A stretch of 64,000 nucleotides of DNA from positions 66,588 to 130,587 of the forward strand of contig DOAO01000006.1 in assembly GCA_003504275.1 (NCBI GenBank). Direction: 5' to 3'. The stretch comes from Patescibacteria group bacterium. GTDB lineage: Bacteria; Patescibacteriota; Minisyncoccia; Phycocordibacterales; UBA12445. The notes below the pieces were generated by a model that was not told where the DNA came from, ran no database searches, and was given only the letters and a program-made list of their open reading frames with translations. Position numbers and translations under genes: made by a program. Below are positions 781-28,909 of this stretch, in pieces; positions within the stretch are counted from its first letter, which is position 1, and every line of letters starts with the position of its first letter.

Positions 781-3000
781 TTAGGAGTCATCTAACCTAA
801 TTTGATTATCTGATAATGTTTCAACCCCACACTCGTCATCACTATTGTTTTGCATTTGTTGTGGATTGAAAAAAGTAGACGGAGAAATAAGTATTTTTCT
901 CTTGTCATTTGGGTCTTGTTCTTGATAAATAAGCCCTGAGGTTTCAAGAATGGGAATAATCTGCTGTCGGAGCTGTTGAGCATCTAACATGCGTCCATAA
1001 GCCTTGTAGTGCTTCTCTAGGATGTCTTGGCGAGTGATACCTAGCTTTGGTGTCTCATTGAATACTTGCGACTGAAGCTCATTTTTTTCTTTGTATACAG
1101 GAACAATGATTTGAGTATAAATGTCGTAGATAAATGGAGGCAGATTGAGCTCTTGGCTGATTGATATTTTTTCCCAAAGTTTGAAAGCTTGCTCTATATC
1201 ATCATCGTTCGCTGTGATAGTGGACCCGTTTCGTTCTCTCCACCATAGATTAAGTAATGCGAACGACTTCACAAGCGAAATAAGTCTCTTTATGTCTCGT
1301 TGGTGGCGAGGTTGTAATTTCTTATCCTGCTTGAAAAATCTCTCAAAGATTTTTTCTTGATTTGATATCTTGATGTCATCAATGTGTTCTTGTCTGATTG
1401 CTTGGATACGGAGCTTGAGTTGTTTTCTCTTTGGGTCGTTATCAAGCCATGCTTTGTATTTTTCATTGTCTGCTTCTTTGCGGATTGTGTTTGAAATACC
1501 TGCGTGAATTTTTTCTTGATTGACTTCGGGGGAAAGTAAGATGAAGCGTGTTTGTTCTTGTGGGTCCATACGAAGCCCTGCCGTGCAGAATATAACTGAT
1601 GGATAGCCCTTGAGTGCGATTGTCTTTGTGCGGTTTCCACCTTTCTGGTTCTTGTCTGTTATCTTGGAATACATTATCTTTTCATCGTGTGAAAGAAATG
1701 AACGGAGCCCCTCTAGCAATCCTGTATGTGGCATATCTGTGAATATGAGTATCTTTCGTGAAAGGTCTACGGTAATTTCATTCGTTTCTTTGTTGTAGCT
1801 TCCTTGCTCGTGGAAGAAAGCCGTCTTTGAACAGTTGCCGAGCTTTATAACATCCTCATTCGGGAAAAGTTTTGATACTTCCAAAGCAATGTAGCTTTTA
1901 CCCGTGCTTGAAGGACTATTAAATGAGACATTGAATTGAGCATCTTCCGTATAAGCCGAGAGCTGACAGAGAAAAGTAACGATTTTATTTTCATTGTCAT
2001 TTTTAATTGTGAGCTCAAGTGCTTTTGATAGTTCCTCTGGTGTGAGGGATTGAAATTGAGATGGGTCAATGCGTTCAGGATATTCCTTTGCATATTTATC
2101 AAATAGGTCTGGGATTAAAAGGTTAAGTTTTGTTAAGTAGTCTGTTATGTCTCCGCCATCTCCGACTTCTTCGGGAAGCGTGATGTGATAGAGGTTCCGT
2201 AATCCAACATTTTCCAATATTTTAAGCACCTTTATGGACCCTTTTTTACCTGCCCCATCGTTATCAAAACAAATATAGATTTTCTGACATTTTCTGATGT
2301 CCGCATCAATCCATTCTTCCTTAAATGTGCCTGCCCCGTGCGTAGAAGTAAGAGCAAAGCACCCCTCTGAGATGAGAGCTAGTGCATCAAGTTCTCCTTC
2401 GCAGATAATTTGATTTTCTTCTGATGGTGCATACATTCCAAATAATTGTGCCTCTGCACCTTTTGGATATGTGATTTTTCCGTCGCCGTCTTTTGGGTCC
2501 TGTCGTAGTTTGAAGAATTTATAGCCATCATCGTCCATTACTGGAATAGTGATGTAATTCTTGCCGTAGAATGTGCCATAGCCGAGCCTGTAGCTGTCTA
2601 CAATGCCATTTATGATGCCTCGTTCGTTGAGATATGTTCGTATACGGTCTGGCATTTGCTCGTGGCATTTCTGCACGAGTTCATCTGTAAATCTTGGTCC
2701 ACGATATGATGATGCACGCTGTGGGGTAGTTTTATCTCCGAAGTGTTTTTGTAGCGTGATAATGTTTCCTTTCTCTCCGCATTTTTTGCACTCGTATTGC
2801 GAAGTGTCTTTGTTGAAGTAGAGATGTGCTTCGCTTCCAGTGCTGTTTTTATCGCAGTCATTAAAAATACATTTGGCGATAAGTTCCTGTCCGTTCTCAT
2901 GATGGGTGATACCTTTTTGTGAGAGATATTCTGCTATGTTTATTTTCGTCATATATTGTAATTTATTAGTGATGAATGATGATTGGTATGTCTTTCGCAA
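781..3000 (-). CDS. Phage/plasmid-type DNA primase: CHC2 zinc finger plus Toprim (DnaG-like) domain, with a C-terminal putative P-loop NTPase region (P4-family-like).
   Basis: The N-terminus has a C-x4-C ... H ... C-x2-C pattern (CIFNDC...AHLYF...CKKCGEKG). Toprim acidic motifs ICEGELDALAL and YICFDNDGAG are present. The C-terminal part has a Walker-A-like SPSSTGKS. Confidence 0.7.
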   Translation of the reverse strand: MRKTYQSSFITNKLQYMTKINIAEYLSQKGITHHENGQELIAKCIFNDCDKNSTGSEAHLYFNKDTSQYECKKCGEKGNIITLQKHFGDKTTPQRASSYRGPRFTDELVQKCHEQMPDRIRTYLNERGIINGIVDSYRLGYGTFYGKNYITIPVMDDDGYKFFKLRQDPKDGDGKITYPKGAEAQLFGMYAPSEENQIICEGELDALALISEGCFALTSTHGAGTFKEEWIDADIRKCQKIYICFDNDGAGKKGSIKVLKILENVGLRNLYHITLPEEVGDGGDITDYLTKLNLLIPDLFDKYAKEYPERIDPSQFQSLTPEELSKALELTIKNDNENKIVTFLCQLSAYTEDAQFNVSFNSPSSTGKSYIALEVSKLFPNEDVIKLGNCSKTAFFHEQGSYNKETNEITVDLSRKILIFTDMPHTGLLEGLRSFLSHDEKIMYSKITDKNQKGGNRTKTIALKGYPSVIFCTAGLRMDPQEQTRFILLSPEVNQEKIHAGISNTIRKEADNEKYKAWLDNDPKRKQLKLRIQAIRQEHIDDIKISNQEKIFERFFKQDKKLQPRHQRDIKRLISLVKSFALLNLWWRERNGSTITANDDDIEQAFKLWEKISISQELNLPPFIYDIYTQIIVPVYKEKNELQSQVFNETPKLGITRQDILEKHYKAYGRMLDAQQLRQQIIPILETSGLIYQEQDPNDKRKILISPSTFFNPQQMQNNSDDECGVETLSDNQIRLDDS

Positions 3001-3027
3001 ATGAATTGTTTGCGAGGCTGTTTTACC

Positions 3028-3255
3028 CTATTTTTCGGTCGTCCTCAATGGGTCTGAGAGATTGTCCAAGTGTGCCAACACAGCCCTTTTTTCTTTTTTT
3101 ACATAATCATCTTTATCAACTAACTTTTGAAACCAGCGATGAGTTGTTTGTTTGTTAAAACGCTGTCCTTTTATGGTTCTGACAAAATAAGCGTAAGAGC
3201 TCAAATTTGGATTTTTTTCTGCAATGTTATTGAATCTTCTTTGAAGTGATTTCAT
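3028..3255 (-). CDS. Small basic hypothetical protein (possible DNA-binding regulator of the element).
   Basis: 75-aa ORF immediately downstream of the primase on the same strand. No motif recognised. Confidence 0.35.
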   Translation of the reverse strand: MKSLQRRFNNIAEKNPNLSSYAYFVRTIKGQRFNKQTTHRWFQKLVDKDDYVKKEKRAVLAHLDNLSDPLRTTEK

Positions 3256-3281
3256 ATATTTGTAATTTATTGATGAGTAAT

Positions 3282-3668
3282 TTATTCGGAAGAATGGATA
3301 CGATTTTTTAACATTCTTAAGGCATCAAAATAAACTAAAGATTTTATTTCTAGTCTTCCATTCCAGTGGTCATCAATATCTTGTTCAATTCCGACCTCTC
3401 GTTTGAATATGAATAAAACTTTTCGCTGGTCTTGCTTATCTAAGGCGACTAGCTCAAACCCACGAGAAACTAACGAACTGCTCAAACCCAAATCTTGAGT
3501 CTGAAAATACTCTTTTGAGTTTTCCAAAGAGGTATATTCAAAATTATTTTTTTCTTTTTTTGTGTTTTGCATATAGTTTTGCTTAATAATTTGTAATATT
3601 GAGAGTGTTCCTGCTCTCAACCTATGTGCTGAAAAAACAGTGAAAAAGAAAAAACCGCTATATTTCAA
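3282..3668 (-). CDS. Hypothetical protein.
   Basis: 128-aa ORF. The true start may be an internal Met. No motif recognised. Confidence 0.4.
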   Translation of the reverse strand: MKYSGFFFFTVFSAHRLRAGTLSILQIIKQNYMQNTKKEKNNFEYTSLENSKEYFQTQDLGLSSSLVSRGFELVALDKQDQRKVLFIFKREVGIEQDIDDHWNGRLEIKSLVYFDALRMLKNRIHSSE

Positions 3669-3712
3669 GCAGTTTTTGTCTTTATTTGTCGCTGAAAACT
3701 TCAGTCAATCAA

Positions 3713-6196
3713 TCAAACTTCAGTGAGGTATTGCATTGCTCTCGTATCTTGGATTTCAAGATTTCTCAACTCTTTTTCTGGGGTGATTTTCAACAAAGGA
3801 TTGTATCCTCGCACTGTCTTATCAAAAGGTATTGGTTCTTCTGTTATTTCAAAATACTCACACAATGCTTTTGAGAGAGCTGACTTGTATGTTTGAAATA
3901 AACCTTTCTTTTCCTTGCTCCTTGAAAAAGCATTTTTACAGAAATTGAACATATTATCCGGGGTCAAATAAAAATCTGTATTGCCTTGTCTTTTAGTTTT
4001 AGTAAATGAGAGTGCTTGCAGTATTTTCCAAGAGACATTATCTGATTTTTTGAAGCCGAAGATTTCGTAATCTCCTTTGTTTTTTAGTTTTCCTTTTACA
4101 AGTATTTCAATGTTGTTGTCATCTGTGAACTTAATTTCAATATCGGACCAGCTCAATTTTGGTTTTTGAGCCGTATCGGCTTTATTGTTTTTGTGAAGAT
4201 TACTTTTCTTTACAGAAAACATCCTTTCTTTGTTTCTGTTTATGAGCTCTTGTTTTTCATCAGTTAGCTCAAAAGCTCTAGTGATGGTTTCTTTTGCTTT
4301 TTTCACATCTCCTTTTTCTTCATAAATCAAAGCAAGATTGTTCAATATTGAAGAACTCGTGTCCTCAATGCTCTCGTATACTTTTTGAGCTTCGTCCACT
4401 CTTTCTACCTCGTTGAGAGAGTAGGCAACCTCAAACCTTCTGTCAAAGAAAGTGTATCCGTCCTCAAGTTCTTCTGGTGCAAAGAAAAGCTCCAGCGTTT
4501 GGCCTTCAAGCAAGGAATAAATATCAGAGATTGTGTTGTGTTGTTTTTTCTTGAAAAGTTCTTCAATATCCTTGCTGAACATTTCCTTGAAATATCTTTC
4601 TGCCCGCACATCACGGCTTGGCGGTTTTGCTATTTCTTCTTTGATAGTTGTTGCGTAATTATACAAGAAATCGTCACTACATTCTGCAATGTCTGTATAA
4701 ATCCACTCCTTTCCTCCAGAGAGAACATATTTGAGCTTGTAGACAACGGCATTGTCATACTGTTTTATACGATAATACCCGTGAGCCAACAGATACAGGT
4801 CAAAGAGAGTTTCTTTTGTATTTTTCTTTATTTCGTTGAGTAGTCCTTCAATCTCTTTTTTGTTATTTTCTGACAATACAGTTTCGTCTTGGTAAAGAAA
4901 CTTCTTGAAAAGATAAATTGCCGTTAATTTCGTTTTATCGCTGATATTATTTTTGATTGCATACTGGATTTCATCAAGGAAGAATTGTTTTGTAGGTAGC
5001 TCCATTTGGAATACAAAATAATCATTCATTGATATGCTCTCAATTTGTTTACACATCTGGGATAGGGTGTTTTCTATGCCGACATCGTCCTTGAGTTTCA
5101 GATAGATAGAAAACATATAAATATGGCATCCCAAGAGCAATTCTGTGTCGCCGATATTTTCTATAGTTTCCTTGAAATATTTCAAACTCTCACTATATTT
5201 TTCTTGCTCGTAATAAAGAACGCCTCGCAAATATGAGTTGATGTTGTCGTTCAAATAGTTCCACGGAGTATGTATTTCTGGTTCGTTCTGTAGTATCTCC
5301 TTACACATATCAAACTGTTTGCTTTTCAAGAAAAAGACAAAAGATAGGCGAACAAAGTCGTTTGAGTAGATAGCTCTTTTTAATTCTTCATAGTTCTCCT
5401 TATAAAATTTTTTGAAGTTCTCAACCTCTTGATTATCTGATTTTGTGTAGTAATCAAAAGTTGCCCTGAGAGCTGGCTCGTATTTGGAGTTTTTAGTCAA
5501 AACTTTCTTTGCAAGATTGAACCTTTTGAGTAGACTGGTTTCTTTTTCAAAATAAAGCCCAATGTATTCTTGTTTTGCGAGCATCAAGTTTTCTGGCTTT
5601 TCGTCGTAAAGGTTTGAGAGTTTTCTGAGAGCAAATGACTTGTGCCAGTAGTTATCATCGTAGTTCGTGAGCGTATCATCAAGGTTATTTTTCATTAAAA
5701 TAAATAAAAGATTTCCTTCTATTTTTTGAGTTGAAACTTTGAGAAAATCTGAACCAGTCAAGAAACGTAAAATCTCTGATTGAGGAGATTGGATACTTTC
5801 AACATAGATATGAAATAGGGTTTCTTCGTAATCTTTTTTTATTTCTTCAATAGAAATTGTTTTTGTTTTTTGGATATGAAAATTACCGTTCAGTAGGTCC
5901 AGTGTTGTCATCGTGTGTGTGATTTCAAACTTGTTATTTTTATCTTTTTTATATTCTTGTTTTGTAACGTCTATGAGTAAATAATCTATATCATCTTTTC
6001 GGAGCTTCTCTATTTCTTTTTTGTCTAAGACTCCGATTCTTCCCAAGAAATCAATAGAAAACCAAAGCATGTTTTGGTCGTTTGAGAAATTTATTTCATC
6101 AAAGAATGATTTATCATCATTCTTGTCTATTGTTTTATCTACTGGTTTTATTTTGGGCATAGTGTAATTGTAATTTATCTTTAAGCATCCTAGCAT
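3713..6196 (-). CDS. Large alpha-helical TPR-like repeat protein of unknown function, divergent from the Type III R-M operon.
   Basis: 827-aa ORF with many TPR-like helical pairs (for example YYRIKQYDNAVVYKLKYVL, EEKGDVKKAKETITRAFEL). No catalytic motif seen. Confidence 0.65.
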   Translation of the reverse strand: MLGCLKINYNYTMPKIKPVDKTIDKNDDKSFFDEINFSNDQNMLWFSIDFLGRIGVLDKKEIEKLRKDDIDYLLIDVTKQEYKKDKNNKFEITHTMTTLDLLNGNFHIQKTKTISIEEIKKDYEETLFHIYVESIQSPQSEILRFLTGSDFLKVSTQKIEGNLLFILMKNNLDDTLTNYDDNYWHKSFALRKLSNLYDEKPENLMLAKQEYIGLYFEKETSLLKRFNLAKKVLTKNSKYEPALRATFDYYTKSDNQEVENFKKFYKENYEELKRAIYSNDFVRLSFVFFLKSKQFDMCKEILQNEPEIHTPWNYLNDNINSYLRGVLYYEQEKYSESLKYFKETIENIGDTELLLGCHIYMFSIYLKLKDDVGIENTLSQMCKQIESISMNDYFVFQMELPTKQFFLDEIQYAIKNNISDKTKLTAIYLFKKFLYQDETVLSENNKKEIEGLLNEIKKNTKETLFDLYLLAHGYYRIKQYDNAVVYKLKYVLSGGKEWIYTDIAECSDDFLYNYATTIKEEIAKPPSRDVRAERYFKEMFSKDIEELFKKKQHNTISDIYSLLEGQTLELFFAPEELEDGYTFFDRRFEVAYSLNEVERVDEAQKVYESIEDTSSSILNNLALIYEEKGDVKKAKETITRAFELTDEKQELINRNKERMFSVKKSNLHKNNKADTAQKPKLSWSDIEIKFTDDNNIEILVKGKLKNKGDYEIFGFKKSDNVSWKILQALSFTKTKRQGNTDFYLTPDNMFNFCKNAFSRSKEKKGLFQTYKSALSKALCEYFEITEEPIPFDKTVRGYNPLLKITPEKELRNLEIQDTRAMQYLTEV

Positions 6197-6289
6197 CTTT
6201 TACTATGAAAATTAAGTATTTTTTGTTACACTAGAACAGTCTTAAAAGACACACAATTTAGTTACCTAAGGTCTACTCAAAATAGATAC

Positions 6290-6443
6290 GGTACAAATAA
6301 ACCCCATCCCTGATACTGAACCCCGTGTTCAGCTACTCAGGGATGGGTCATTGTCGGGAAACTGATAATGGAGTCGCAAGGCTCAAGCTGGCACGGGGTT
6401 CTGTGCTTTCTCGGTCCAGCTTTATTAGACAAAACCCATCCCT
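6290..6443. other. GC-rich structured intergenic element with nested hairpins, flanked by the 12-nt direct repeats AAACCCCATCCC / AAAACCCATCCC. Candidate small ncRNA or MITE.
   Basis: CCATCCCTGA pairs with TCAGGGATGG. GAACCCCGTG pairs with CACGGGGTTC about 90 nt downstream. GC content is far above the surrounding AT-rich DNA. Confidence 0.4.
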
Positions 6444-6446
6444 TTT

Positions 6447-8204
6447 ATGTCTACAAACAAATTACAATCAATAGAAAAAGCTAAAGGTAGAGCTATGCTC
6501 GTATGGGCTGGCAAGAAGCCTTTAGAGAGCATTGAATACTATCCTGCTCAAGAGAAAGAAATATACGGCAACAAGAAGTCGCAAGATTTTAATAAATTAT
6601 TTTGGGGAGATAATCTCCAAGTTCTCGCACACTTACTAAAAGAGTATCGTGGTAAAGTTGATTTGATATATATAGACCCTCCGTTTGATAGCAAGGCGGA
6701 TTATGTTAAATCAGTAAAAATGAAAGGTGAAAAGGTTGAGGGGGTTGAGCAAGGACTGCTTGAAGAAAAACAGTATGGCGATATTTGGGAAAAGGATGAG
6801 TATCTTCAATTTATGTATGAGCGTTTTTTAATTTTGAAAGAACTTTTGTCTGAAAATGGAAGTATATATTTACATTGTGATTGGCATAAAAACTCCCATC
6901 TTCGCTTGTTAATGGATGAAGTATTCAGTGAAGATAATTTTAGAAATGAAATTATCTGGCATTATTTTGTATCTGGAAAATATCCAAGTGAGTTTGCAAA
7001 AGACCACGATAATATCTATGTATATTCAAAAAGTAAAAACTCCACATTTAACTATGAGAAACAAGTAGACAAATATCTATATTATGAAAAGTTTTACAAT
7101 AAACAAATTGTTAAAGGAAAGGATGGAAAAGAATACTATGAATATAATGGAGAATTAAGAACGTTTGAAAAACAGGTTTCTGAAACTTGGAATATAAATA
7201 AAATTAAAAGAGACGGCAAAGAAATTGTTGGCTATCCTACACAAAAACCAGAAGAATTACTAGAAAGAATAATTAAAGCATCTTCAAATGAGGGCGATGT
7301 GGTCCTTGATTGTTTTTGTGGCTCTGGAACCACGATGGTTACCGCTCAAAAATTAGGTCGCCGATGGATTGGATGCGACATAAATCTCGGAGCGATACAA
7401 ACCTCCACAAAACGCCTCAATCAGATTATTGAGGAGCAGAAAAATGCTCTCGGTTTCAAAGTGCTCAATGTGAATGAATATACAGCGTTCAAAAATGAAC
7501 TTGAAGCGAAAGATATTGTGATGGAAATGTATGGCGTGGAGCCAATGAAGCGAAGTTATTTTGACGGAGTGCTTGATACTTCGTATGTGAAAGTGATGCC
7601 AATGAACAGGGTCCTCAACAAGCTAGATATGAAAACCTTGCTCAAGAATGTGAATGACAAGCTCGCTGATTTTACAGTCAAAAAGAAGTCCAAATCTGGC
7701 GAGGCGGTGTATGACGAGGGTGTGCTTGTCATCTGCTCTGGTATGGACCTTGAAGTTGCCGACTATCTCAAAAAAGAGAACAAGACGGGCGTGAAGATTG
7801 ATGTCCGAGACATTGCCACAGACAAGAAAAATCTCGTCTTTAAGAAACCACCAGAGGCAAATATTGAGGTGAAAGTAAAAGACAAAAATCTCTCCGTGTC
7901 GCTCAAAGAGTTCTATTCGCCTATAATGATGCGAAAATTAGAGATTGAAAACAGTAAAGCTCTCAAGAAAGAATACCAAGCAAAAGTTGAAGATTTCCGC
8001 CAGATTATTGATAGCGTGGCTATTGATGTGGATTATACAGGCGACCTTTTTAATGCCGAGATTATGGACCTGCCGACAAAGCGTGAGCTCATCAAAGCTG
8101 ACTACTCTTGGGGATATCCAAAGAAAGGCAAATACACTGTGGCAGTCAAAATCGTGGATGTGCTTGGCGAGGAATACTTTGAAACTTTTAGAGTAAATGT
8201 ATAA
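6447..8204 (+). CDS. mod: Type III restriction-modification methyltransferase (Mod; beta-class N6-adenine/N4-cytosine MTase).
   Basis: Motif IV DLIYIDPPF precedes motif I VVLDCFCGSGTT by about 200 aa, leaving room for a target-recognition domain. It is followed by a helicase-nuclease Res gene. Confidence 0.85.
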   Translation: MSTNKLQSIEKAKGRAMLVWAGKKPLESIEYYPAQEKEIYGNKKSQDFNKLFWGDNLQVLAHLLKEYRGKVDLIYIDPPFDSKADYVKSVKMKGEKVEGVEQGLLEEKQYGDIWEKDEYLQFMYERFLILKELLSENGSIYLHCDWHKNSHLRLLMDEVFSEDNFRNEIIWHYFVSGKYPSEFAKDHDNIYVYSKSKNSTFNYEKQVDKYLYYEKFYNKQIVKGKDGKEYYEYNGELRTFEKQVSETWNINKIKRDGKEIVGYPTQKPEELLERIIKASSNEGDVVLDCFCGSGTTMVTAQKLGRRWIGCDINLGAIQTSTKRLNQIIEEQKNALGFKVLNVNEYTAFKNELEAKDIVMEMYGVEPMKRSYFDGVLDTSYVKVMPMNRVLNKLDMKTLLKNVNDKLADFTVKKKSKSGEAVYDEGVLVICSGMDLEVADYLKKENKTGVKIDVRDIATDKKNLVFKKPPEANIEVKVKDKNLSVSLKEFYSPIMMRKLEIENSKALKKEYQAKVEDFRQIIDSVAIDVDYTGDLFNAEIMDLPTKRELIKADYSWGYPKKGKYTVAVKIVDVLGEEYFETFRVNV

Positions 8205-8653: not shown

Positions 8654-11196
8654 TGGAAAATCTATTTTTACAGAGTATAAAAGTCAAAGTATCCGAGTGG
8701 CGAGAAAACGGGTATCAAGGAGGCTTCAAGGAGAGCATAAACATTTTGAACTATGTGAAGCGTGTCGGCTTTTTACACGAGCCACAAATTGAAGCTCTTG
8801 AAACTTATATCTATATCAAGGAGGTTTTGGAAAATAAGCCAACGGGTGAAATTTTCAAAGACGCTTTTTCAAAGAAATCCGATTTGCTTCGTTCTCTTGG
8901 TGTGCCAGAGAGAAATATTTCGGACATTATGGAAGCCGATAATCGTGACGAGCAAATAACTGAAATCATTAAGGAAAAGTTTGGTTCTCAAGATTACGCA
9001 AATCAAGTTTATGCTCTTACAATGGGTTCGGGTAAGACAATTTTAATGGCGACTTTTTTAATATACGATTTCGTTCTTTCATACTATCATCCAGACGATG
9101 CACGCTTTGCAAAGAATGCTCTAGTCTTTGCTCCCGATACGACCATTATAGAGAGCTTAAAAGAGATAAAAACTTTTGATTATTCAAGGGTCTTGCCAAA
9201 GGAATATCAGAATATTTTGCTTAACATTAAGTATCACTACCTAGAGAGCACGGAAACAGGGCTCTCTCCGATTGGTAATTACAATGTCATCGTTTCAAAC
9301 TCGCAAAAGATAATTCTCAAAACAAGAAATAGTGATACGGACAATGGGGTAAAAAAGTTATTTGGAGATAAGGGGGAACTAGCAAAGCGTGAAGTAGAAA
9401 ATGCCCGTCTGCGTGCTATCCGAGAGCTCAATAACCTCATTATATTTGTAGATGAAGCTCATCACTCTTATGGTGTGAACCTTGAGGGTGCTTTGAAAAA
9501 GACACGCCAAACAATTGATTACTTGCACGGCAATACTCCGCTTGTGGGTGTTGTAAATCTCACAGGAACACCATATCTCAATAACAGGATGATAGACGAT
9601 GTTGTATATCACTTTGGGCTCAAACAAGGTATAGAAAAAGGCATCTTGAAACAAGTGAAGATATTGGATTTCGGAGAGGTCCGCTCGGAGATTTTCATTG
9701 AAGAAGTGCTCTCTACATTCTGGTCCGAGTATGGAGAAAATCGCCTCGAAGGTCGTCTGCCTAAAATGGCTTTCTATGCTCCTAATATTGATAATTTACA
9801 AAATGAACTCAAGCCTCGTATTGAGAGAATTCTCGCTGAGATGGATATACCTATTGATAAAGTCCTTGAGTATCACACCGAAGCAGAAGACAGTAAAGAT
9901 GAGTTTCGAATACTTGATACTATAGATAGTAAGAAACAGTTTGTGCTTCTTGTTGGTAAGGGGACCGAAGGATGGAACTGTCGCTCATTGGTTGCTTGTG
10001 CTCTCTATCGTAAGCCATCTAGCTCAATTTTTGTGCTCCAAGCATCTACACGCTGTATGAGGTCCATTGGAGATAATTCTACACGAGCCCATATATTCCT
10101 CTCAAAAGAAAACTATAAGGTATTAGATAAAGAGCTTAAGAACAACTTTGCTTCAAGCATTCAAGACATCAACAACCAAGAGCAAAAGAGCTTCGAGTTT
10201 GAAATTAAAGTTGAAAAGAAAAAGACCATCAAGGTAAAAAAGCTCATCCGAGATATTATTTCCACACAGGCAACAAATACAGACGATATCAAGATTGATA
10301 TTAAGAAATATAAACCAGAGAAATACGAGCACTATATCTTGGGTTCAGAACTTGTTGTAGATACTTCTGGCAAGGCAATTTTTAAGCACGATACGCTTGG
10401 CTCAAAGAAAATAAAAGAGAGTAATTCATATACCTATTATGAAATCGTAGAGCTTATCAATCGCTACACACATTTGCCATGTTTAGCGATAGGTAAATTA
10501 TTGGAAAATATCGGATTGTCTAGGAATGAGCTAGCAAGTAAAGTGAATACGAGTGTGGGGTTTTTACCCTTCATTATTCAATCTGTTCTTGAAACTGTTT
10601 ATCAGTATACGGAAACAGAAACAGCTACCGAAGAAGAAATTGAACTTACTAAAGAATACCCGTTTAAGATGAGCCGAGAGGAGGGTAAAAAAGCCCTTGT
10701 TGTATTTAAAGAAAAAGAGGAAGCAGACGGAGCTACAAGTCGTATCGGTTTTCATATCAACCCTTATAATTTTGACAGTAGCGATGAACGGGACCTGTTC
10801 CGACAATTCCGACAGCTTCTGGTAGATAAAGAGACGATTAAGGATGTTTACTTTAATGGTGGAGTTACTACCATTGCTCACAATGATTTTTATGTTGAAT
10901 ATTGGAACCCTACAGAACAGCGTATATCCAAGTATTTTCCAGACTTTTTGATAGAAACTGATAAGGGTCGTTTCTTGGTTGTAGAGGTAAAATCTGGGTC
11001 CGAAAAGACAGAGTATGAAGCAAACAAGAAACGCTACAATGGGACCAACACATCACTCTTTAATGAGGTATATGCTAAAGAGGTTGGCTTCCTAGATTTT
11101 CAAAAAGTGAATAAGGATTTTGAATACAAAGTCATCTTTGACGCTCACTTGCAAGAAAGACAGCGAGAGCTCTTTGAGATGATTAGAACTCTGTAA
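8653..11196 (+). CDS. res: Type III restriction enzyme Res subunit (SF2 helicase plus C-terminal PD-(D/E)xK nuclease).
   Basis: Walker A is TMGSGKTILMATF. The DEAH box is IIFVDEAHHS. The C-terminal segment YFPDFLIETDKGRFLVVEVKSG matches PD...D/ExK. Confidence 0.85.
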   Translation: MENLFLQSIKVKVSEWRENGYQGGFKESINILNYVKRVGFLHEPQIEALETYIYIKEVLENKPTGEIFKDAFSKKSDLLRSLGVPERNISDIMEADNRDEQITEIIKEKFGSQDYANQVYALTMGSGKTILMATFLIYDFVLSYYHPDDARFAKNALVFAPDTTIIESLKEIKTFDYSRVLPKEYQNILLNIKYHYLESTETGLSPIGNYNVIVSNSQKIILKTRNSDTDNGVKKLFGDKGELAKREVENARLRAIRELNNLIIFVDEAHHSYGVNLEGALKKTRQTIDYLHGNTPLVGVVNLTGTPYLNNRMIDDVVYHFGLKQGIEKGILKQVKILDFGEVRSEIFIEEVLSTFWSEYGENRLEGRLPKMAFYAPNIDNLQNELKPRIERILAEMDIPIDKVLEYHTEAEDSKDEFRILDTIDSKKQFVLLVGKGTEGWNCRSLVACALYRKPSSSIFVLQASTRCMRSIGDNSTRAHIFLSKENYKVLDKELKNNFASSIQDINNQEQKSFEFEIKVEKKKTIKVKKLIRDIISTQATNTDDIKIDIKKYKPEKYEHYILGSELVVDTSGKAIFKHDTLGSKKIKESNSYTYYEIVELINRYTHLPCLAIGKLLENIGLSRNELASKVNTSVGFLPFIIQSVLETVYQYTETETATEEEIELTKEYPFKMSREEGKKALVVFKEKEEADGATSRIGFHINPYNFDSSDERDLFRQFRQLLVDKETIKDVYFNGGVTTIAHNDFYVEYWNPTEQRISKYFPDFLIETDKGRFLVVEVKSGSEKTEYEANKKRYNGTNTSLFNEVYAKEVGFLDFQKVNKDFEYKVIFDAHLQERQRELFEMIRTL

Positions 11197-11200
11197 AAAT

Positions 11201-11389
11201 ATGCAAATATCAGACAAACATTTCTTGGAGTTTAAGAAGTTAATGAGAGATAAGGTGGGGGAGGAAAAATACAATAAAATGACAGAACAAGAACTCCTTG
11301 CAAGTGCAATCGCCTTAATAACTATGATGAAAGCGGTCTATAAACCAATCACAAAAGAGGCTTATGAAAAATACAAGAAAGCAAATTGA
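11201..11389 (+). CDS. Small hypothetical ORF downstream of res.
   Basis: 62-aa ORF with no clear ribosome-binding site. It overlaps the next small ORF. Confidence 0.25.
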   Translation: MQISDKHFLEFKKLMRDKVGEEKYNKMTEQELLASAIALITMMKAVYKPITKEAYEKYKKAN

Positions 11390-11562
11390 AGATAAAATGC
11401 CACAGTGTAAGGAGGCAGATTGCAATGAGCTATTAGTTGCTGATAATGACGGATATTGTCTTCGCCATATTTGTCCGCCTCCCATACCTTTGATACTTCA
11501 GTATCTTAATGAACAAGATACAAAGAAAAAAGAAAAGAATGAGGAAGTAAAATAAAAAAACT

Positions 11563-13576: not shown

Positions 13577-14065
13577 ATGAACCTTTTCTTGATGGTGTTG
13601 GGAATAATTGCGGGTATCATTGGAATAATTGGCAGTGTGTTACCAGCTCTTCCTGGACCATTACTAACTTATTCAACCCTCTTTATTCTCTACTATATAG
13701 GCGGAGAGAATTTAATGCCTTCTTATAACTTGATATATATAGGTGTAATTGCTGGTCTTTTGGTAATAATTAGCAATCTTATTCCTGTGGCTGCTACGAA
13801 AATAAGCGGTGCTTCTAAGAGTGGGGTTTATGGTTCTATCATTGGCTCAATTGTCGGTTTAATAATGTTCCCACCACTGGGTGTTTTCTTGGGTGCAGTA
13901 ATAGGTGCTACGCTAGGGGAATATTATGCCTTCAGTGATGTTAAGAGGTCTATCAGCGCAGGTGTAGGTTCCACGCTTGGCACTATCGCTGTTCTGTTTA
14001 TTCAATTTATTTTTTCTATCTCCGTTTTTGTCTATTTTCTAATTAAAGCACTCTCTTTACTGTAA
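13577..14065 (+). CDS. DUF456-like small integral membrane protein.
   Basis: The N-terminus GIIAGIIGIIGSVLPALPGPLL is typical of DUF456. There are four or more hydrophobic helices. Confidence 0.55.
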   Translation: MNLFLMVLGIIAGIIGIIGSVLPALPGPLLTYSTLFILYYIGGENLMPSYNLIYIGVIAGLLVIISNLIPVAATKISGASKSGVYGSIIGSIVGLIMFPPLGVFLGAVIGATLGEYYAFSDVKRSISAGVGSTLGTIAVLFIQFIFSISVFVYFLIKALSLL

Positions 14066-23502: not shown

Positions 23503-23529
23503 ATAGATTTACAACTAGCTACTTTTTAA

Positions 23530-23573
23530 AACACGGCTTCCGACATAAATCATTGGCCGTGTTTGCTTTTTTT
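23530..23573 (+). terminator. Rho-independent terminator.
   Basis: AACACGGC...GGCCGTGTT stem followed by TGCTTTTTTT. Confidence 0.5.
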
Positions 23574-23671
23574 AAAAAATATTGTAATATTTCTATTTGA
23601 AAAGAGTTTTTTGAAAAATATACATATTTCACGGAAGTTAACCGTAGTTAGTGTAAAGTAATAAGGAGGGG

Positions 23672-24928
23672 TTGTGTATGAGAATTAATAATTTACCATT
23701 AATTTCCTTATTCGTTTTGGTTCTCGTTTCTTTTTCCTTGTTTTTGGGTGGTTGTGCTTATGCCGACAATGAAACCATTAATAAAAACAAATTAGCTGAA
23801 ATTACAAACGATACCACTTCTAGTTTTTTAAATGAACCCTTTGACCTAGAACTTCTTGTAGAGGTTATTGTTGTTGCTTACACGAACCATGTAAATCGTA
23901 AAAATTTTGACAAGAACAAGATAACCAAAGGTATCGTTCGTGGTTTTATGCAAAGCTTGGATAAACATTCTAATTTTCTTGATCCGGAAGAGGCGGCAAA
24001 TCGGTTAGAATCTTCATCAGGTAAAATTGATGGGGGAATTGGTATTGTTTTTAGCGCTCAAAAAAGAAGTCTTCTTGTGGATGAGGTTAATAAAGACTCT
24101 CCGGCAGAAAAAGCTGGCATCAAGGCTAGAGATAGAATAATAGCTATTGATGGTGTTTCTGTTAAAAATATTCAATTAATAGAAATAACAAAAAAGATTC
24201 GCGGTGAAATCGGAACGAATGTTGTTCTTAAAATAGTTCGCCGTGGAGAAAAAAAACCGATTGATATAACCGTCACTCGTGGAATAATAACAGTTCAGAG
24301 TGTTTCTTGTGATGTCGTAAAAAAAGAAAACAAGATTATTGGCATCATTAAAATTACTGGTTTTCGAGAAAATACATATGCTCAATTTTTGTCAGAAACT
24401 TCTAAGTTGATGGATAAAAAACCTGATTATATCATATTTGATCTTCGTGAAAATCCGGGTGGATATGTAAATAGTGTACGTGACATTATGAGTGAAATAG
24501 TGGGTCCTGGCCATGTTCTTTTTCAAGAAGAATTTTGGGATGGAAGAGTGACTAAAATATCTTCCAATCTATTGACTACAAGCAGTATATTCTATAAAGA
24601 TTCTTCTATTAACAAATTCGCTTGTCTTGTGAATGAAAATACGGCTTCTGCTGCTGAAATTATGTCGTCCGGGCTTCGCGATATTCTTGGAACAAAGATA
24701 ATTGGAGAGGCTACGTACGGTAAGGGTACTGGATGGGTTCCTATTGACCTTAAGTCTGGTAAGGGAACTTGCAATGTTACCTGTTTCAGGTGGTTGACCC
24801 CAAGGGGAAATTCTATAGAAGAGGTAGGCGTTGAACCAGATATTGAGGTTTTTATGGAGGAAGAAGATGTGTTCTTGAAAAAAGATCCGCAAATGGACGT
24901 AGCTTTTGAGGAATTGTTGAAAAAATAA
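23672..24928 (+). CDS. ctpA: S41-family C-terminal processing peptidase with a PDZ domain.
   Basis: PDZ segment GIGIVFSA...DSPAEKAGIKARDRIIAIDG. Active-site region FDLRENPGGYV and NENTASAAEIM. N-terminal signal/transmembrane segment. Confidence 0.85.
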   Translation: MCMRINNLPLISLFVLVLVSFSLFLGGCAYADNETINKNKLAEITNDTTSSFLNEPFDLELLVEVIVVAYTNHVNRKNFDKNKITKGIVRGFMQSLDKHSNFLDPEEAANRLESSSGKIDGGIGIVFSAQKRSLLVDEVNKDSPAEKAGIKARDRIIAIDGVSVKNIQLIEITKKIRGEIGTNVVLKIVRRGEKKPIDITVTRGIITVQSVSCDVVKKENKIIGIIKITGFRENTYAQFLSETSKLMDKKPDYIIFDLRENPGGYVNSVRDIMSEIVGPGHVLFQEEFWDGRVTKISSNLLTTSSIFYKDSSINKFACLVNENTASAAEIMSSGLRDILGTKIIGEATYGKGTGWVPIDLKSGKGTCNVTCFRWLTPRGNSIEEVGVEPDIEVFMEEEDVFLKKDPQMDVAFEELLKK

Positions 24929-24936
24929 TAAATTTA

Positions 24937-24965
24937 AGCGGCACTGACAGGTGCCGCTTTTTATA
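24937..24965 (+). terminator. Rho-independent terminator.
   Basis: AGCGGCACTGACAGGTGCCGCT hairpin followed by TTTTAT. Confidence 0.65.
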
Positions 24966-25145
24966 TTGACCCGAACGAGAGGTGTGCTATATTTCGAAGT
25001 AGATAAGTTATTTGAAAACTCGCCCGCCAAAATTTTCGGATACAACTTATATTGCCAATAAAATTATATTTTAATCAAATATTAATACATTTTGTGGTTA
25101 AGGTTAGTTTGGTAAAAAATTTAGGAGGGTAAAGGAAGGTGTAGT

Positions 25146-25388
25146 ATGGATGAAAAGTTTAGAAAAATTTTGAGAGAAATTTTTGAGAATCCGCCCTTGA
25201 GAGAAGCTATTAGAAGAGGAAAAGAAGAAGGAGATCGTTTTCGTTCTGACCGAGAGTATCCTGGCGTATTAACAAAATGTTTGGGTGTTCCTGTCAAAAC
25301 CAAAATTGTTTCCGATGAGGTGGATGAAAAATCAGAGGTTCCAAAAATCGAAATAATAGAGACTCTGATAACCCTTAACGTCAGTTGA
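25146..25388 (+). CDS. Small hypothetical protein (80 aa).
   Basis: A ribosome-binding site AAAGGAAGG lies 7 nt upstream. Charged, helical. The antisense ORF 25121..25471 is regarded as spurious. Confidence 0.4.
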   Translation: MDEKFRKILREIFENPPLREAIRRGKEEGDRFRSDREYPGVLTKCLGVPVKTKIVSDEVDEKSEVPKIEIIETLITLNVS

Positions 25389-26099
25389 TTGTGCGTTACG
25401 TCGAGGAGGCGATTTATGAAAAGATTTTTGTTTGTTCTCATTCTGCTCGTTTTTTTAATGTCGGGCGGCATCGTGTTTGGTGAAAACGAACGCTTTATTT
25501 TACCGGGAGATAGACCAATCGATTCTGTGGCAGATGGAATTGCTTATATTAAAGTAAGCGATTACTTTGAATGCGGATTTTCTCGCTTTCACGATGTAGT
25601 ATCAGAAATAAAAAGGAAGAAATTAAACAGTAAGATTATTCTTGATTTTCGTGGAAGTTCCGCTGTTGATCTTAAAGGAGCCATAGAGGTAATTGAGACT
25701 TTTATTGGTCCAGGAAAAGTCGCCTATATTAAAGAGAACAAAGAAGACGGAGTCAGAGAAAAAACAATGACGGGCTATCCAAAGGAAAATATAAAGATTG
25801 GCAAAATTGTTTGTCTTGCGGACACAGATACAAATGTGCCATCAGAGATAATTGTTTTAGCCTTAAAATATCATTTGTTTAACTTTACCACTGTCGGCAA
25901 ACAGACAACCGGTAATCTTGAGTGTTACAGATACTTTCCATCAGGCATAGCAAGGTTGCCTTATGGGTTTAATTGGCTTTCTTCTTCGGGGGTTAAGATA
26001 ACCAATACCGGTATTACTCCTGCTTATGAAGTTGTAGAAGATGAGCCGGGTAGGGATTTGGCGACAGAAAAGGCAATAGAACTTTTAAATAGAGAATAG
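25389..26099 (+). CDS. S41-peptidase-like domain protein lacking a PDZ domain, with an N-terminal transmembrane helix.
   Basis: ILDFRGSSAVDLKGAIEV and LADTDTNVPSEIIVLALK resemble the S41 catalytic core. A ribosome-binding site GAGGAGG is present. Confidence 0.55.
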   Translation: MCVTSRRRFMKRFLFVLILLVFLMSGGIVFGENERFILPGDRPIDSVADGIAYIKVSDYFECGFSRFHDVVSEIKRKKLNSKIILDFRGSSAVDLKGAIEVIETFIGPGKVAYIKENKEDGVREKTMTGYPKENIKIGKIVCLADTDTNVPSEIIVLALKYHLFNFTTVGKQTTGNLECYRYFPSGIARLPYGFNWLSSSGVKITNTGITPAYEVVEDEPGRDLATEKAIELLNRE

Positions 26100-26108
26100 T
26101 TTTTATAA

Positions 26109-26137
26109 ACGACCCATAATCATGGGCCGTTTTTCTT
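26109..26137 (+). terminator. Rho-independent terminator.
   Basis: CGACCCATAATCATGGGCCG hairpin followed by TTTTTCTT. Confidence 0.5.
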
Positions 26138-26140
26138 ACT

Positions 26141-26236
26141 CTGTAGGAATTTTTTCCCATGAATTTATTTCCTCTCAAGAAGTCTTCCCAGCCCATTTCT
26201 TTCTTTCCTTCGGGGGTTACTTTTTCGGGTACAAAC
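26141..26236 (-). pseudogene. Remnant duplicate of the fmt 3' end (direct repeat A of the pair that brackets the radical-SAM gene).
   Basis: About 72 nt are near-identical to fmt 28047..28118 (TTATTTCCYCTCAAGAAGTCTTCCCARCCCATTTCTTTCTTTCCTTCRGGRGTTACTTTTTCGGG). The minus-strand ORF 26014..26196 begins MGWEDFLRGNK, which is the fmt C-terminus. Confidence 0.75.
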
Positions 26237-26339
26237 GTATCACTTTTCTTTCGTTTGATTAATCCGTGTTGTGATTTTTAAAGAAATGTATTTTGTGGTC
26301 TGTTTTTGGTATTATTTGTTATATATTTAAATAATTACC

Positions 26340-28013
26340 ATGGAGACGTTACCAATAAGAGAAAAAAATAAGAAGGAAGAAATCGGGGATATACGAGATA
26401 TACACCCCAATGGATTGAATGATTTTTTTGAGAAACAATATAATTCCGGTGATTTGGAAAAATATCTTGATAAGATTGCCGAAGAACCTTCCGTTATTGC
26501 ACACATAAGTTATTGGGAAAAATACCTCAATCCAAAGTACAAAAATCTTTTTGAAGAAATGTATAAGGAAAAAGTGTTGCCAGAGATTAAAAATTCAGAA
26601 CTCCCCCTTGCTCTAGAGAAAAGGTTTTCCGAAAAAGAATTAAAAATGATTTTTGAAGACATCCAGACAATCCAATTGACATTTGGTTGTTCGAAAGGAT
26701 GTAAGTTTTGCGGATTAGATGCCGTGCCGGGCGTTAGTGATCACATACCATTTGAACAATTAAAAAATTTTTTTTCAAAATACGGCAAAGAGCTTTCTGT
26801 ATCCGAGCCATTTTTATATTATGCATCTGAGCCGGCCGACTACAGGTCTGAGGATAAGGAAGGAAGGGTTGTTGCTTATAAAGATGTTGAGGCACTTGCT
26901 CATGACAACTCGGGATATATTCCCACTATCACGACGAGGGAGATCAATGACGAATCGTGGTTAAATTTTTTGGGCGAAAGAACAAACAAGGAAGATGTTA
27001 GGGTAAGCGTTTATGGTAAGTTTAAGGATGTCGATATTCCCGATCAAATAGATGCGTCCAAAACTTTAATATACAAACATGACAAGATACCTCTCGGTAA
27101 GGATATTACCAGGGAAAATCAAGAGGGTTCATTGGTGGGAATAGGCTGTTTTGATGGGATTCTTGTGACCCCGCGGGGCATCTATAATGTTATGCAGATC
27201 CCTGTATCCATTGAATATCCCCAGGGACAAATGATCGTCCCTCTTCGGGAAATATCAAAAGAGCCGATATGCATAGGGCAGAGTTTTGAATCAGTTTTGT
27301 CGTGTGCAGTCCTACAGAATAATGTCGAATTATATGTTGATCGTTTTTTGATTAAGCCATATGTAACGGTTGAGACAGGGGCAGGGATGTTTGATATTGT
27401 TCTGGATAATGAACTTAATGTGAAAAATGTCATTCCTAGCGATGAAAAAGTTGAAGAGCTTATGGGCAGGATGGAACGCTTTAGGAAATTACGCAGAATT
27501 ATTATTTCTAAGGACAAACAAATATTAGTTGATTATCTAGGATCGTTAGAAGAAGGAGATGGGGAAGTTCTTGTCGAGATTTGTCACCAAATAAGCGGTA
27601 TGGAGATAGTTGATATTGAAGACAAGAATAAATTAGCTGAAAATTTAATTAGTTTGAGACGATTGGCATTCAATCGCATTAATATAAAAATTGGAGAATT
27701 TGAAGACGAAATTGGGGAATATTCTAAAAAACAAAAGGACAAATTGGGCCCAGGTTGGTTTGATAGTAGAGATTTCGTTTTGGGACCAAATAGTAATTTT
27801 TATGTGAATGCATCTCGCTCAATGATTCAAGTAGACAGCGATGGTAAAAAATATTTTAGATTAGAGCGACCTGGCGATGTAAATACAGCTGAAATACTCA
27901 TTTATCCCCCAGAAGGATTTAAATGGGAAAATGCAGGGGATTTTTGGAATATCAGGTTACTGTACGGGTCTAGAGTAAAGGTCAGGCTAATTGATAGCCA
28001 GAAAGATAAATAA
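26340..28013 (+). CDS. Radical SAM domain protein (557 aa) of unknown function.
   Basis: CxxxCxPhiC motif in LTFGCSKGCKFCGLD. Few other cysteines, so probably no SPASM or auxiliary cluster. Confidence 0.8.
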   Translation: METLPIREKNKKEEIGDIRDIHPNGLNDFFEKQYNSGDLEKYLDKIAEEPSVIAHISYWEKYLNPKYKNLFEEMYKEKVLPEIKNSELPLALEKRFSEKELKMIFEDIQTIQLTFGCSKGCKFCGLDAVPGVSDHIPFEQLKNFFSKYGKELSVSEPFLYYASEPADYRSEDKEGRVVAYKDVEALAHDNSGYIPTITTREINDESWLNFLGERTNKEDVRVSVYGKFKDVDIPDQIDASKTLIYKHDKIPLGKDITRENQEGSLVGIGCFDGILVTPRGIYNVMQIPVSIEYPQGQMIVPLREISKEPICIGQSFESVLSCAVLQNNVELYVDRFLIKPYVTVETGAGMFDIVLDNELNVKNVIPSDEKVEELMGRMERFRKLRRIIISKDKQILVDYLGSLEEGDGEVLVEICHQISGMEIVDIEDKNKLAENLISLRRLAFNRINIKIGEFEDEIGEYSKKQKDKLGPGWFDSRDFVLGPNSNFYVNASRSMIQVDSDGKKYFRLERPGDVNTAEILIYPPEGFKWENAGDFWNIRLLYGSRVKVRLIDSQKDK

Positions 28014-28030
28014 AAATAGTTTTAACTAAA

Positions 28031-28909
28031 TTATTGTAGAGGGATTTTATTTCCCCTCAAGAAGTCTTCCCAACCCATTTCTTTCTTTCCTTCAGGAGTT
28101 ACTTTTTCGGGAATGAATCTGTCGTTCTCTATTTTTGCTTTAGTTATTTTTACGCGCATTTCCTTGTCGCGAATATTTAAAATTGTGAAAGTCCCTGGGT
28201 CTGGATTTAGCGCCCTGACCTTTCTTTCTGCCTCAATAATTTTTTCTCTAGAAACATTATCTGAAGTTATAATTTCAGATTCTATGAAGCCGTCTTTTTT
28301 GTCTATTTTTTTACAGTAGGTAGCCGCCCCGTGGTCTTGTTGTTTGGGTTCTATCTCACCATTTATATAAGAGGGAATAGACTCACAAAGAATTTTTCCT
28401 CCGACTTCGCCGAGTTTTTCTTCTAGTTCACTGTAGGATAAATTTTCTGAATTTATTTTTTCTGTCTTTAAGATTGGCCCATGGTCCATTTCTTCGTCTA
28501 GGAGCATTATCGAAACACCCGTCTCTTTTGCGCCTTCTAATATTGCCGATTGTATTGGGCTAGGACCTCGTAAGTGTGGAAGAAGCGAAGGATGTACATT
28601 AAGGATGCCATATTTTGGAATATTCAATATTCTTTTTGGGACAAGTTTTCCGTATGCGGCTAAAATGAATATTTCATAATCGCCGTCAATTTCAAAATCC
28701 TTTAAACTTTTTGGTTGGAACACCTCAATGCCTCTTTTAACCGCCCATTCTTTAACTGGCGGAGGAGTAAGGACGAGATGCCTTCCTTTTGGCTTATCTG
28801 GCGAAGTTACGATTTTGTCTGGTAGGAAACCACATGCTTCAAGTTGGTCTAAAATAATAACCGCAAAGTGCGGTGTTCCAAAAAAGACGAATTTTGGTTT
28901 AGTGTTCAT
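28031..28909 (-). CDS. fmt: Methionyl-tRNA formyltransferase.
   Basis: FFGTPHFAV at the N-terminus and HPSLLPHLRGPSPIQ. Last gene of the conserved priA-def-fmt operon. Confidence 0.9.
   Translation of the reverse strand: MNTKPKFVFFGTPHFAVIILDQLEACGFLPDKIVTSPDKPKGRHLVLTPPPVKEWAVKRGIEVFQPKSLKDFEIDGDYEIFILAAYGKLVPKRILNIPKYGILNVHPSLLPHLRGPSPIQSAILEGAKETGVSIMLLDEEMDHGPILKTEKINSENLSYSELEEKLGEVGGKILCESIPSYINGEIEPKQQDHGAATYCKKIDKKDGFIESEIITSDNVSREKIIEAERKVRALNPDPGTFTILNIRDKEMRVKITKAKIENDRFIPEKVTPEGKKEMGWEDFLRGNKIPLQ
28047..28118. repeat. Direct repeat B: the fmt 3' coding end, duplicated at 26165..26236.
   Basis: About 72-nt match with 4 mismatches to repeat A. Confidence 0.75.

Follow-up and report, generated by a model that had tools for sequence, protein, structure and literature searches.

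How does a radical S-adenosylmethionine (SAM) gene come to lie at the 3' end of fmt, bracketed by two copies of the end of fmt itself? The question arises from a 64,000-nt stretch of contig DOAO01000006.1 from a groundwater Patescibacteria group bacterium (positions 66,588 to 130,587 of the forward strand; hereafter, the window), in which a divergent radical SAM gene adjoins fmt, the essential methionyl-tRNA formyltransferase gene that comes last in priA-def-fmt. Bacteria of the candidate phyla radiation (CPR) have very small genomes, little is known of how they gain genes, and the locus offers an unusually clean record of gene gain: that is, a putative ancestral junction, displaced end, and replacement end within 2 kb. 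The results indicate, by comparison with its kin, that the radical SAM gene was inserted on its own at the fmt 3' end. We consider it reasonably probable that about 1.8 kb of DNA carrying one orphan, Patescibacteria-specific radical SAM gene was inserted at this position by recombination with a cassette-borne fmt end, an account in which the direction of events and the recombination mechanism are both points that we infer.

The best gapless direct repeat in the region pairs 26161-26229 (hereafter, copy A) with 28043-28111 (copy B), at an offset of 1882, with 64 of 69 nt identical, and a BLASTN comparison of the upstream flank of the radical SAM gene with its downstream flank gives E = 4e-25. 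An earlier note on this DNA had described such a direct repeat of the fmt 3' end flanking the gene, and realignment bears out the repeat but not the interval or the count: 26165-26236, said to contain 4 mismatches in 72 nt, contains 8, because the last 7 nt of that interval lie beyond the right-hand edge of the repeat, and the figure of 4 applies only to a 66-nt core, 26164-26229, of which 62 nt are identical to the downstream copy. Of the 292 fmt codons, the repeat takes in 266-288 (PEKVTPEGKKEMGWEDFLRGNK and one further codon), leaving the last three fmt codons and the stop codon outside. Copy B, on the minus strand, is the functional 3' end of fmt (28031-28909, minus strand, 292 amino acids; TIGR00460, 213 bits, above cutoff). 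Copy A, also on the minus strand, reads as a displaced fmt 3' fragment (the 22 codons of PEKVTPEGKKEMGWEDFLRGNK plus F; tblastn, 29 amino acids, 83%, E = 1.5e-14), and its peptide-level likeness to fmt extends to about 26247 (KSDTFV). The minus-strand open reading frame (ORF) at 26014-26196 does, as had been noted, start with MGWEDFLRGNK. Between the copies lies a single gene, as had been proposed: the only substantial ORF there is the radical SAM gene at 26340-28013 on the plus strand, which encodes 557 amino acids with CSKGCKFC at residues 117-124. To its left are 110 nt of non-coding DNA (26230-26339), the presumed promoter region of the gene on the plus strand, with a promoter-like site at 26306-26335 and with neither an ORF nor a homologue of the small partner ORF of the radical SAM family described below. 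To its right, the end of the insert (28014-28042) consists of a 17-nt spacer, followed by the fmt stop codon and the P-L-Q codons (28031-28042). The radical SAM gene and fmt are thus convergent, with stop codons 17 nt apart (28014-28030), and, because no terminator separates them, the transcript of each probably runs antisense into the other.

The window contains no third copy of the fmt end, and a series of insertions, expected to leave a third fmt-end remnant, was rejected when none was found either in the window or in 28 fmt loci of relatives. Since the source genome is a metagenome-assembled draft, the arrangement might in principle be a chimera, two strains having been joined in assembly at the fmt 3' end. 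This explanation is effectively refuted: a Logan assembly (seen in three samples) and an ENA assembly made with MEGAHIT at k127 are both identical to the window sequence over 7.7 kb around the gene, the exact runs common to the two copies (about 20 nt at most, counted from the alignment) are too short to mislead assemblers using large k, and the left junction joins an fmt fragment to non-fmt DNA, which is not a product of k-mer chimerism. We conclude from the agreement of two independent assemblies with the window that the arrangement is not an assembly artefact.

Whether the gene was added at this position or was always there can be judged from fmt loci in other genomes. We mapped the window proteins onto 36 fmt loci from reference genomes. 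In the loci of the closest fmt relatives, which have about 67-74% amino-acid identity to the window fmt (L010, 73%; L082, 73%; L083/L084, 67%), two to four S41 peptidase genes lie between ppi and fmt, with the last one convergent on fmt, and a G+C-rich hairpin follows the fmt stop codon in L010, L082, and L083, the loci where this was checked. None of these four loci carries the radical SAM gene at fmt. In six more distant loci (L011, L012, L016, L019, L020, and L022) a convergent ppi gene, encoding cyclophilin, directly adjoins fmt, and in L011 and L012 rnr and smc come next, as in the window. Elsewhere, homologues of the radical SAM gene have unrelated neighbours, such as mraY and murD on either side in L009 or ileS downstream in L008. 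From the S41-fmt junctions of the closest relatives, which lack the radical SAM gene, it follows that the S41-terminator-fmt junction is ancestral for the clade and that the radical SAM gene was added in the window lineage. The single-gene insertion at the fmt 3' end proposed in the earlier note is thus supported both by these loci and by the unrelated contexts of the homologues, and the pattern that would have spoken for the opposite, a radical SAM gene at fmt in relatives with conserved neighbours and no repeats, was looked for across the relatives and was not found.

The opposite order of events, in which the S41 genes and fmt were always separated by the radical SAM gene and every sampled relative has lost it, with the repeat an unrelated local duplication, appears very improbable. 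No available relative exceeds 74% fmt identity, so such losses are formally possible, and the composition of the radical SAM gene matches that of the genome. However, separate and precise losses would be needed in L010, in L082, in L083/L084, and in no fewer than six lineages further away; the radical SAM protein has its nearest homologue at only 47% identity and in a different context, as compared with 73-81% identity between the flanking genes and their L010 orthologues; and the exact bracketing of the gene by the repeats would be left unexplained.

If the gene is an insertion, the two copies of the fmt end may be either one sequence duplicated in place or two sequences of separate descent, and the differences between them bear on this choice. 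In the 22 shared codons, 4 of 4 differences are synonymous third-position transitions (ACC/ACT, CCC/CCT, GGC/GGT, and AGA/AGG), a pattern that has a chance of P = 0.001-0.01 under neutral change, depending on transition bias. Copy A as it stands is open for 52 codons without a stop. Removal of one A from its A6 run (T6 on the plus strand, 26150-26155) makes it read GNK-FMGK-IPTE-stop, ending 6 nt before a hairpin, as compared to GNK-IPLQ-stop for copy B, so that, once the single-A slip is undone, the two tails differ by an in-frame 12-nt indel. The segment at 26136-26160 (minus strand; M-G-K-I-P-T-E-stop with one A dropped from A6) would accordingly be a remnant of the native fmt tail, provided that the frameshift is real; in the relatives, fmt ends 0-8 codons past FLRG. 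The hairpin in question is the G+C-rich terminator at 26110-26131 (stem-loop at 26113-26126, then a T run), between the S41 gene and the presumed ancestral fmt end; it corresponds in position to the post-fmt hairpin of L010 and L082, where the hairpin comes just after the fmt stop codon, and in L012 and L083 the hairpin lies further downstream. The terminator has stayed with copy A; copy B has none, and the stop codon of the radical SAM gene comes 17 nt on. At either edge of the block, identity between the copies drops abruptly, with KSDTFV in copy A facing ENDRFI in copy B on the upstream side and with differing tails downstream: divergence is 6% in the block and about 30% just outside it, where there are also indels of 13 nt and roughly 30 nt. 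The synonymous-only differences, the alternative tails, and the presence of the terminator with copy A only disfavour a simple in-place copy. Judged by sequence, the copies fit the behaviour of two diverged functional fmt ends, and not of one sequence duplicated in place; the native fmt end, now displaced, would be copy A, and copy B and its tail would be a replacement end brought with the cassette. The 'target duplication' that the earlier note attributed to the insertion is therefore better read, on the strength of the synonymous-only differences, the tails, and the sharp edges, as a resident fmt end plus a cassette-borne fmt end.

A target duplication in place is unlikely, although we give it appreciable weight. 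It would have an illegitimate or staggered-cut insertion copy about 70-145 nt of the S41-terminator-fmt junction, after which the copies diverged, copy B being held by selection on fmt and copy A either decaying or being kept similar by gene conversion. Direct repeats that bracket exactly one gene, the uniform composition of the region, and the failure to find a recombinase are all as this explanation would have it. So too is a weak collinear homology that continues past the fmt stop codon, between 26086-26109 and 28007-28030 and across the stop codons of the S41 and radical SAM genes, as a long junction duplication predicts; at P = 0.003-0.01 it is suggestive only. Yet a decaying copy A should hold mostly nonsynonymous changes, and 4 of 4 are synonymous, with P about 0.02 even when part of the changes is assigned to copy B, the one under selection; divergence, moreover, is very uneven, being 6% in the block and about 30%, with indels, outside it. 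To our knowledge, the target duplications made by known transposases are far shorter than 70-145 nt, which also counts against this explanation.

According to the cassette-borne-end account, the ancestral junction would have consisted of an S41 peptidase gene and fmt converging on a hairpin terminator, and the incoming DNA would have brought its own conserved fmt C-terminal block together with a short tail (IPLQ-stop). Recombination inside the block of about 69 nt, in a Campbell-type or an attP x attB-type event, would have placed the cassette, such that fmt would now be completed by the cassette-borne copy B and the native end, copy A, would have been shifted to the far side, beside the old terminator, later to lose its stop codon through a one-base slip. 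Because the cassette itself carries no recombinase, the exchange would have required either a recombinase supplied in trans or RecA working on a circularised fragment. The resulting geometry is attL/attR-like, as in elements that target and restore gene ends, and the locus has two features expected of att-flanked elements, namely target-derived direct repeats and a restored target gene. The sharp edges of the block fit either an att-like block or gene conversion; RecA-mediated and site-specific exchange are both compatible with them.

Searches for the machinery of mobility bear on the same account. No integrase, excisionase, or transfer gene was found in or near the insert, a scan of the window placed no tRNA or Rfam element near the locus as an attachment site, and the insert has no significant terminal inverted repeats. 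Insertion of a transposon or insertion sequence was rejected in view of this absence of terminal inverted repeats, of a repeat that is 69 nt long and non-identical, and of the failure to find a transposase. The proposal of a site-specific or illegitimate insertion thus holds for the insertion as such, and the direct repeats are att-like, but a recombinase was not found in the cassette or in the window ORFs searched; the ten unassigned window ORFs yielded Toprim, DUF5659, TPR, and metallo-beta-lactamase-fold domains.

Several observations weigh against recombination with a cassette-borne fmt end. The cassette and the ten unassigned window ORFs contain no integrase or transposase, the other window ORFs having been inspected by eye only. 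The composition of the cassette is that of the neighbouring genes (G+C content of the window, 37.8%), and therefore gives no independent sign of foreign origin. A collection of 5.8 billion proteins contains no fmt product with more than 74% identity, and no same-species empty site was found; nor was a donor arrangement, with the radical SAM gene adjoining fmt in another genome. Four sites carry the whole argument from synonymous differences, the slip of one A in copy A is a hypothesis, and identity drops at the block edges more sharply than uniform divergence of two orthologues predicts. The collinear homology past the fmt stop codon is a further point on this side, as is the finding that flanking repeats are not general in the radical SAM family. 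Finally, the assignment of the cargo as an enzyme is remote: the window protein scores 22.2 bits against the Pfam Radical_SAM model PF04055, below the cutoff of 29.5, and its best Foldseek match in the PDB, the radical SAM enzyme MiaB, is weak (E = 0.1).

Some integrative elements and genomic islets insert into a conserved gene at its 3' end and supply a replacement for that end, leaving attL and attR direct repeats, and integrase-less remnants of such elements, including the streptococcal cis-mobilizable elements, are known. Like these, the window insert is flanked by direct repeats of the 3' end of its target gene, leaves the target intact, appears to have the displaced end at its far side together with the old terminator, and is absent from relatives. 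Unlike these, it is only 1.8 kb long, has one cargo gene and no detected integrase, excisionase, or transfer gene, uses as target the protein-coding gene fmt in a CPR bacterium, and has no att sequence common to other loci of the family. Integron cassettes provide a second comparison, in that they too are single-gene units of about 2 kb, and one relative (L060; see below) comes out of assembly as a circular or tandem unit of 2,087 nt, but no attC-like conserved imperfect palindrome occurs across the loci, there is no IntI and no attI, and the repeats in the window are fmt coding sequence. We conclude that the insertion is of a broadly familiar kind that resembles known gene-end-targeting islands, and so leaves current ideas unchanged, and that its cargo comes from an uncharacterised family.

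What, then, is the cargo? For the window protein, whose match to the Pfam model is sub-threshold, assignment as a radical SAM protein is made because the motif and Pfam matches of its family support it. The cysteines of the CxxxCxxC motif (C117, C121, and C124) are invariant in 24 of 24 aligned family members, the window protein keeps all 24 family-invariant residues, and PF04055 is matched by 18 of the 24 members (best E = 6e-10), three members having a precomputed PF04055 annotation. In an AlphaFold2 model (pLDDT 75.7), an N-terminal helical domain is followed by what appears to be a beta/alpha core. No relative with a solved structure in the PDB was found by sequence. The protein should, on motif evidence, bind a [4Fe-4S] cluster through C117, C121, and C124 and cleave SAM.

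Comparison with NCBIfam models points to one named relative. All 24 members match TIGR04517, the model for PoyD, an epimerase of ribosomally synthesized and post-translationally modified peptides (RiPPs), with a best E of 6.2e-10, and none of them matches a further radical SAM model of NCBIfam; of 10 distant relatives tested, 7 also match TIGR04517, at up to 48 bits as compared to a cutoff of 325 bits, and the window protein itself scores 22.4 bits, far under that cutoff. The family therefore lies outside the PoyD family, to which it is distantly related. Like PoyD epimerases, its proteins have an N-terminal domain of about 110 amino acids before CxxxCxxC and, in both cases, no SPASM domain, and, as in PoyD systems, most of its members have a small ORF immediately upstream. 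Unlike PoyD, they score only 22-48 bits against the 325-bit cutoff, with a match limited to the first half of the model, and, unlike in PoyD systems, the window copy has no adjacent partner at all. The 44-54-amino-acid, Lys/Arg/Glu-rich, helical partner peptides of the family are, so far as we know, unlike known proteusin precursors. Searches with hidden Markov models (HMMs) for the SPASM and B12-binding domains contemplated in the earlier note found neither: no SPASM, Fer4, or B12-binding Pfam match occurs in any of the 24 members, whose alignment has no further conserved cysteine beyond CxxxCxxC. The N-terminal 107 and C-terminal 227 amino acids of the window protein have no significant Pfam domain, and its C-terminal 220 amino acids are common to P0002 only, the homologue with 47% identity. 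A phage origin was rejected, as no viral contig with the family and no PHROGs match was found, and an anti-phage defence gene was rejected for lack of a PADLOC match.

In an exhaustive profile search with an E limit of 0.001, the family came to 517 cluster representatives, and every source name given for a member is Patescibacteria or Parcubacteria; we found nothing specific in the literature on this family in CPR bacteria. Its neighbours differ in every lineage (a glycosyltransferase cluster in L002, the mraY/murD gap in L009, the upstream side of ileS in L008). The recurrent neighbour is a conserved 44-54-amino-acid, Lys/Arg/Glu-rich ORF, which precedes the radical SAM gene in 28 of the 36 non-redundant loci whose flanks were long enough, ends within a few codons of the radical SAM start codon, usually overlapping it, follows roughly the pattern LV..R..L..EL..L..Y.KKI..V+KKY, and has no Pfam match; examples are at 7880-8017 in L002, 7865-8014 in L004, 3552-3692 in L008, and 5853-6002 in L050, with others in about 24 further loci. 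Its product may serve the enzyme as a peptide substrate or join it as a subunit. Because the only named relatives are PoyD-type and the family usually has this small partner ORF, we predict that the substrate of the radical SAM protein is most likely a peptide or protein; the pairing of an uncharacterised, Patescibacteria-restricted family with a 44-54-amino-acid peptide gene makes a candidate new peptide-modifying system. The RiPP-like role that had been suggested for the gene thus gains support at the level of the family, from the PoyD-only match and the 28 of 36 loci with a small ORF, but not for the window copy, which has no adjacent precursor ORF: an HMM of the small ORF finds no match when the 64-kb window is translated in all six frames. 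The small ORF is also missing beside P0002 (L001), the one close homologue of the window protein, and the two proteins have in common the distinct C-terminal region. In L001, the P0002 gene is preceded at 2487-2870 by a 127-amino-acid ORF that corresponds to only the C-terminal piece of an ABC-transporter ATPase and that looks like a truncated gene remnant beside the radical SAM gene.

Several loci invite the question of whether the family itself is mobile. In L060 (FLOH01002558.1), a contig of 2,212 nt has ends identical over 125 nt, implying a 2,087-nt circular or tandem unit, and this unit contains the small ORF, the radical SAM gene, 463 nt of non-coding DNA with a hairpin, and nothing else. 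In L051, direct repeats of 22-25 nt flank the module (1403-1427 and 3288-3312), and a second, outer pair (770-814 and 3948-3990) encloses the module together with neighbouring genes and contains a small palindrome. L052 has similar 30-nt hairpin-forming sequences around the module (5764-5793 and 7232-7261) and a tRNA-Leu(CAG) gene at 7308-7394, 100 nt downstream of the radical SAM stop codon. In L007, paralogous genes for proteins of 615 and 618 amino acids, identical over their first 300 nt (5805-6104 = 11096-11395), flank the module 5.3 kb apart, and an 89-nt element just upstream of the module (7775-7863) recurs with 93% identity upstream of an ABC-ATPase fragment (13801-13889); these paralogues and this element explain the flanking duplication in L007, which was therefore rejected as an fmt-like junction. 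Flanking direct repeats as a family trait were likewise rejected: only the window has a strong one, and roughly 30 other loci, L051 and L052 excepted, have none. Nor is there a shared cassette-end or att signal, since no non-coding element is common to the ends of 35 loci. It is quite doubtful, although L060 gives a hint of it, that the small ORF and radical SAM gene form a recombinase-less, Patescibacteria-specific mobile module that moves as a circle of about 2 kb, integrates at conserved gene ends by way of a captured piece of host gene, and encodes a new radical-SAM peptide or protein modification, with the window copy having lost its peptide gene.

The genes immediately upstream of the insert had been noted as an 80-amino-acid ORF and a PDZ-less S41-peptidase homologue, and both are present: the ORF at 25146-25388, and the S41 gene at 25389-26099 on the plus strand (Pfam S41, E = 3e-11, no PDZ match), the likely true start of which is the methionine of a MKRFLF signal anchor at 25416. 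A link between either gene and the radical SAM gene found no support, as neither the 80-amino-acid ORF nor S41 peptidases nor fmt co-occur with the radical SAM family in any of 45 other family loci. The PDZ-less S41 gene belongs to the resident S41 array, outside the insert, and the 80-amino-acid ORF and S41 genes are incidental neighbours. Homology of the regions upstream of the 80-amino-acid ORF and of the radical SAM gene, considered on account of the motifs AATRYATTTTGTGGT and TTTTCGGRTACAA, was rejected after gapped alignment proved not significant (P = 0.07-0.19).

The number of S41 paralogues arrayed in the ppi-fmt gap varies: several relatives have none, L010 (1460-3945) and L082 (4782-7865) have two each, L083 (8062-13618) has four, and the window (23503-26099) has two, one of them the PDZ-less gene. 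Identity of these paralogues to the PDZ-containing S41 protein of the window ranges from 29% to 54%, as against 73-81% for the flanking genes and their L010 orthologues, and the gap looks like a local hotspot of gene turnover. Elsewhere in the window, genes on the minus strand at 781-6196 encode a 739-amino-acid Toprim protein, a DUF5659 protein, and an 827-amino-acid TPR protein, with no recombinase among them; this may be a mobile or replication-related region. Next to it, at 6263-6384 and just upstream of a 585-amino-acid ORF (6447-8204), is a match to the Rfam LOOT RNA motif (RF03000) of 53 bits, above the gathering cutoff.

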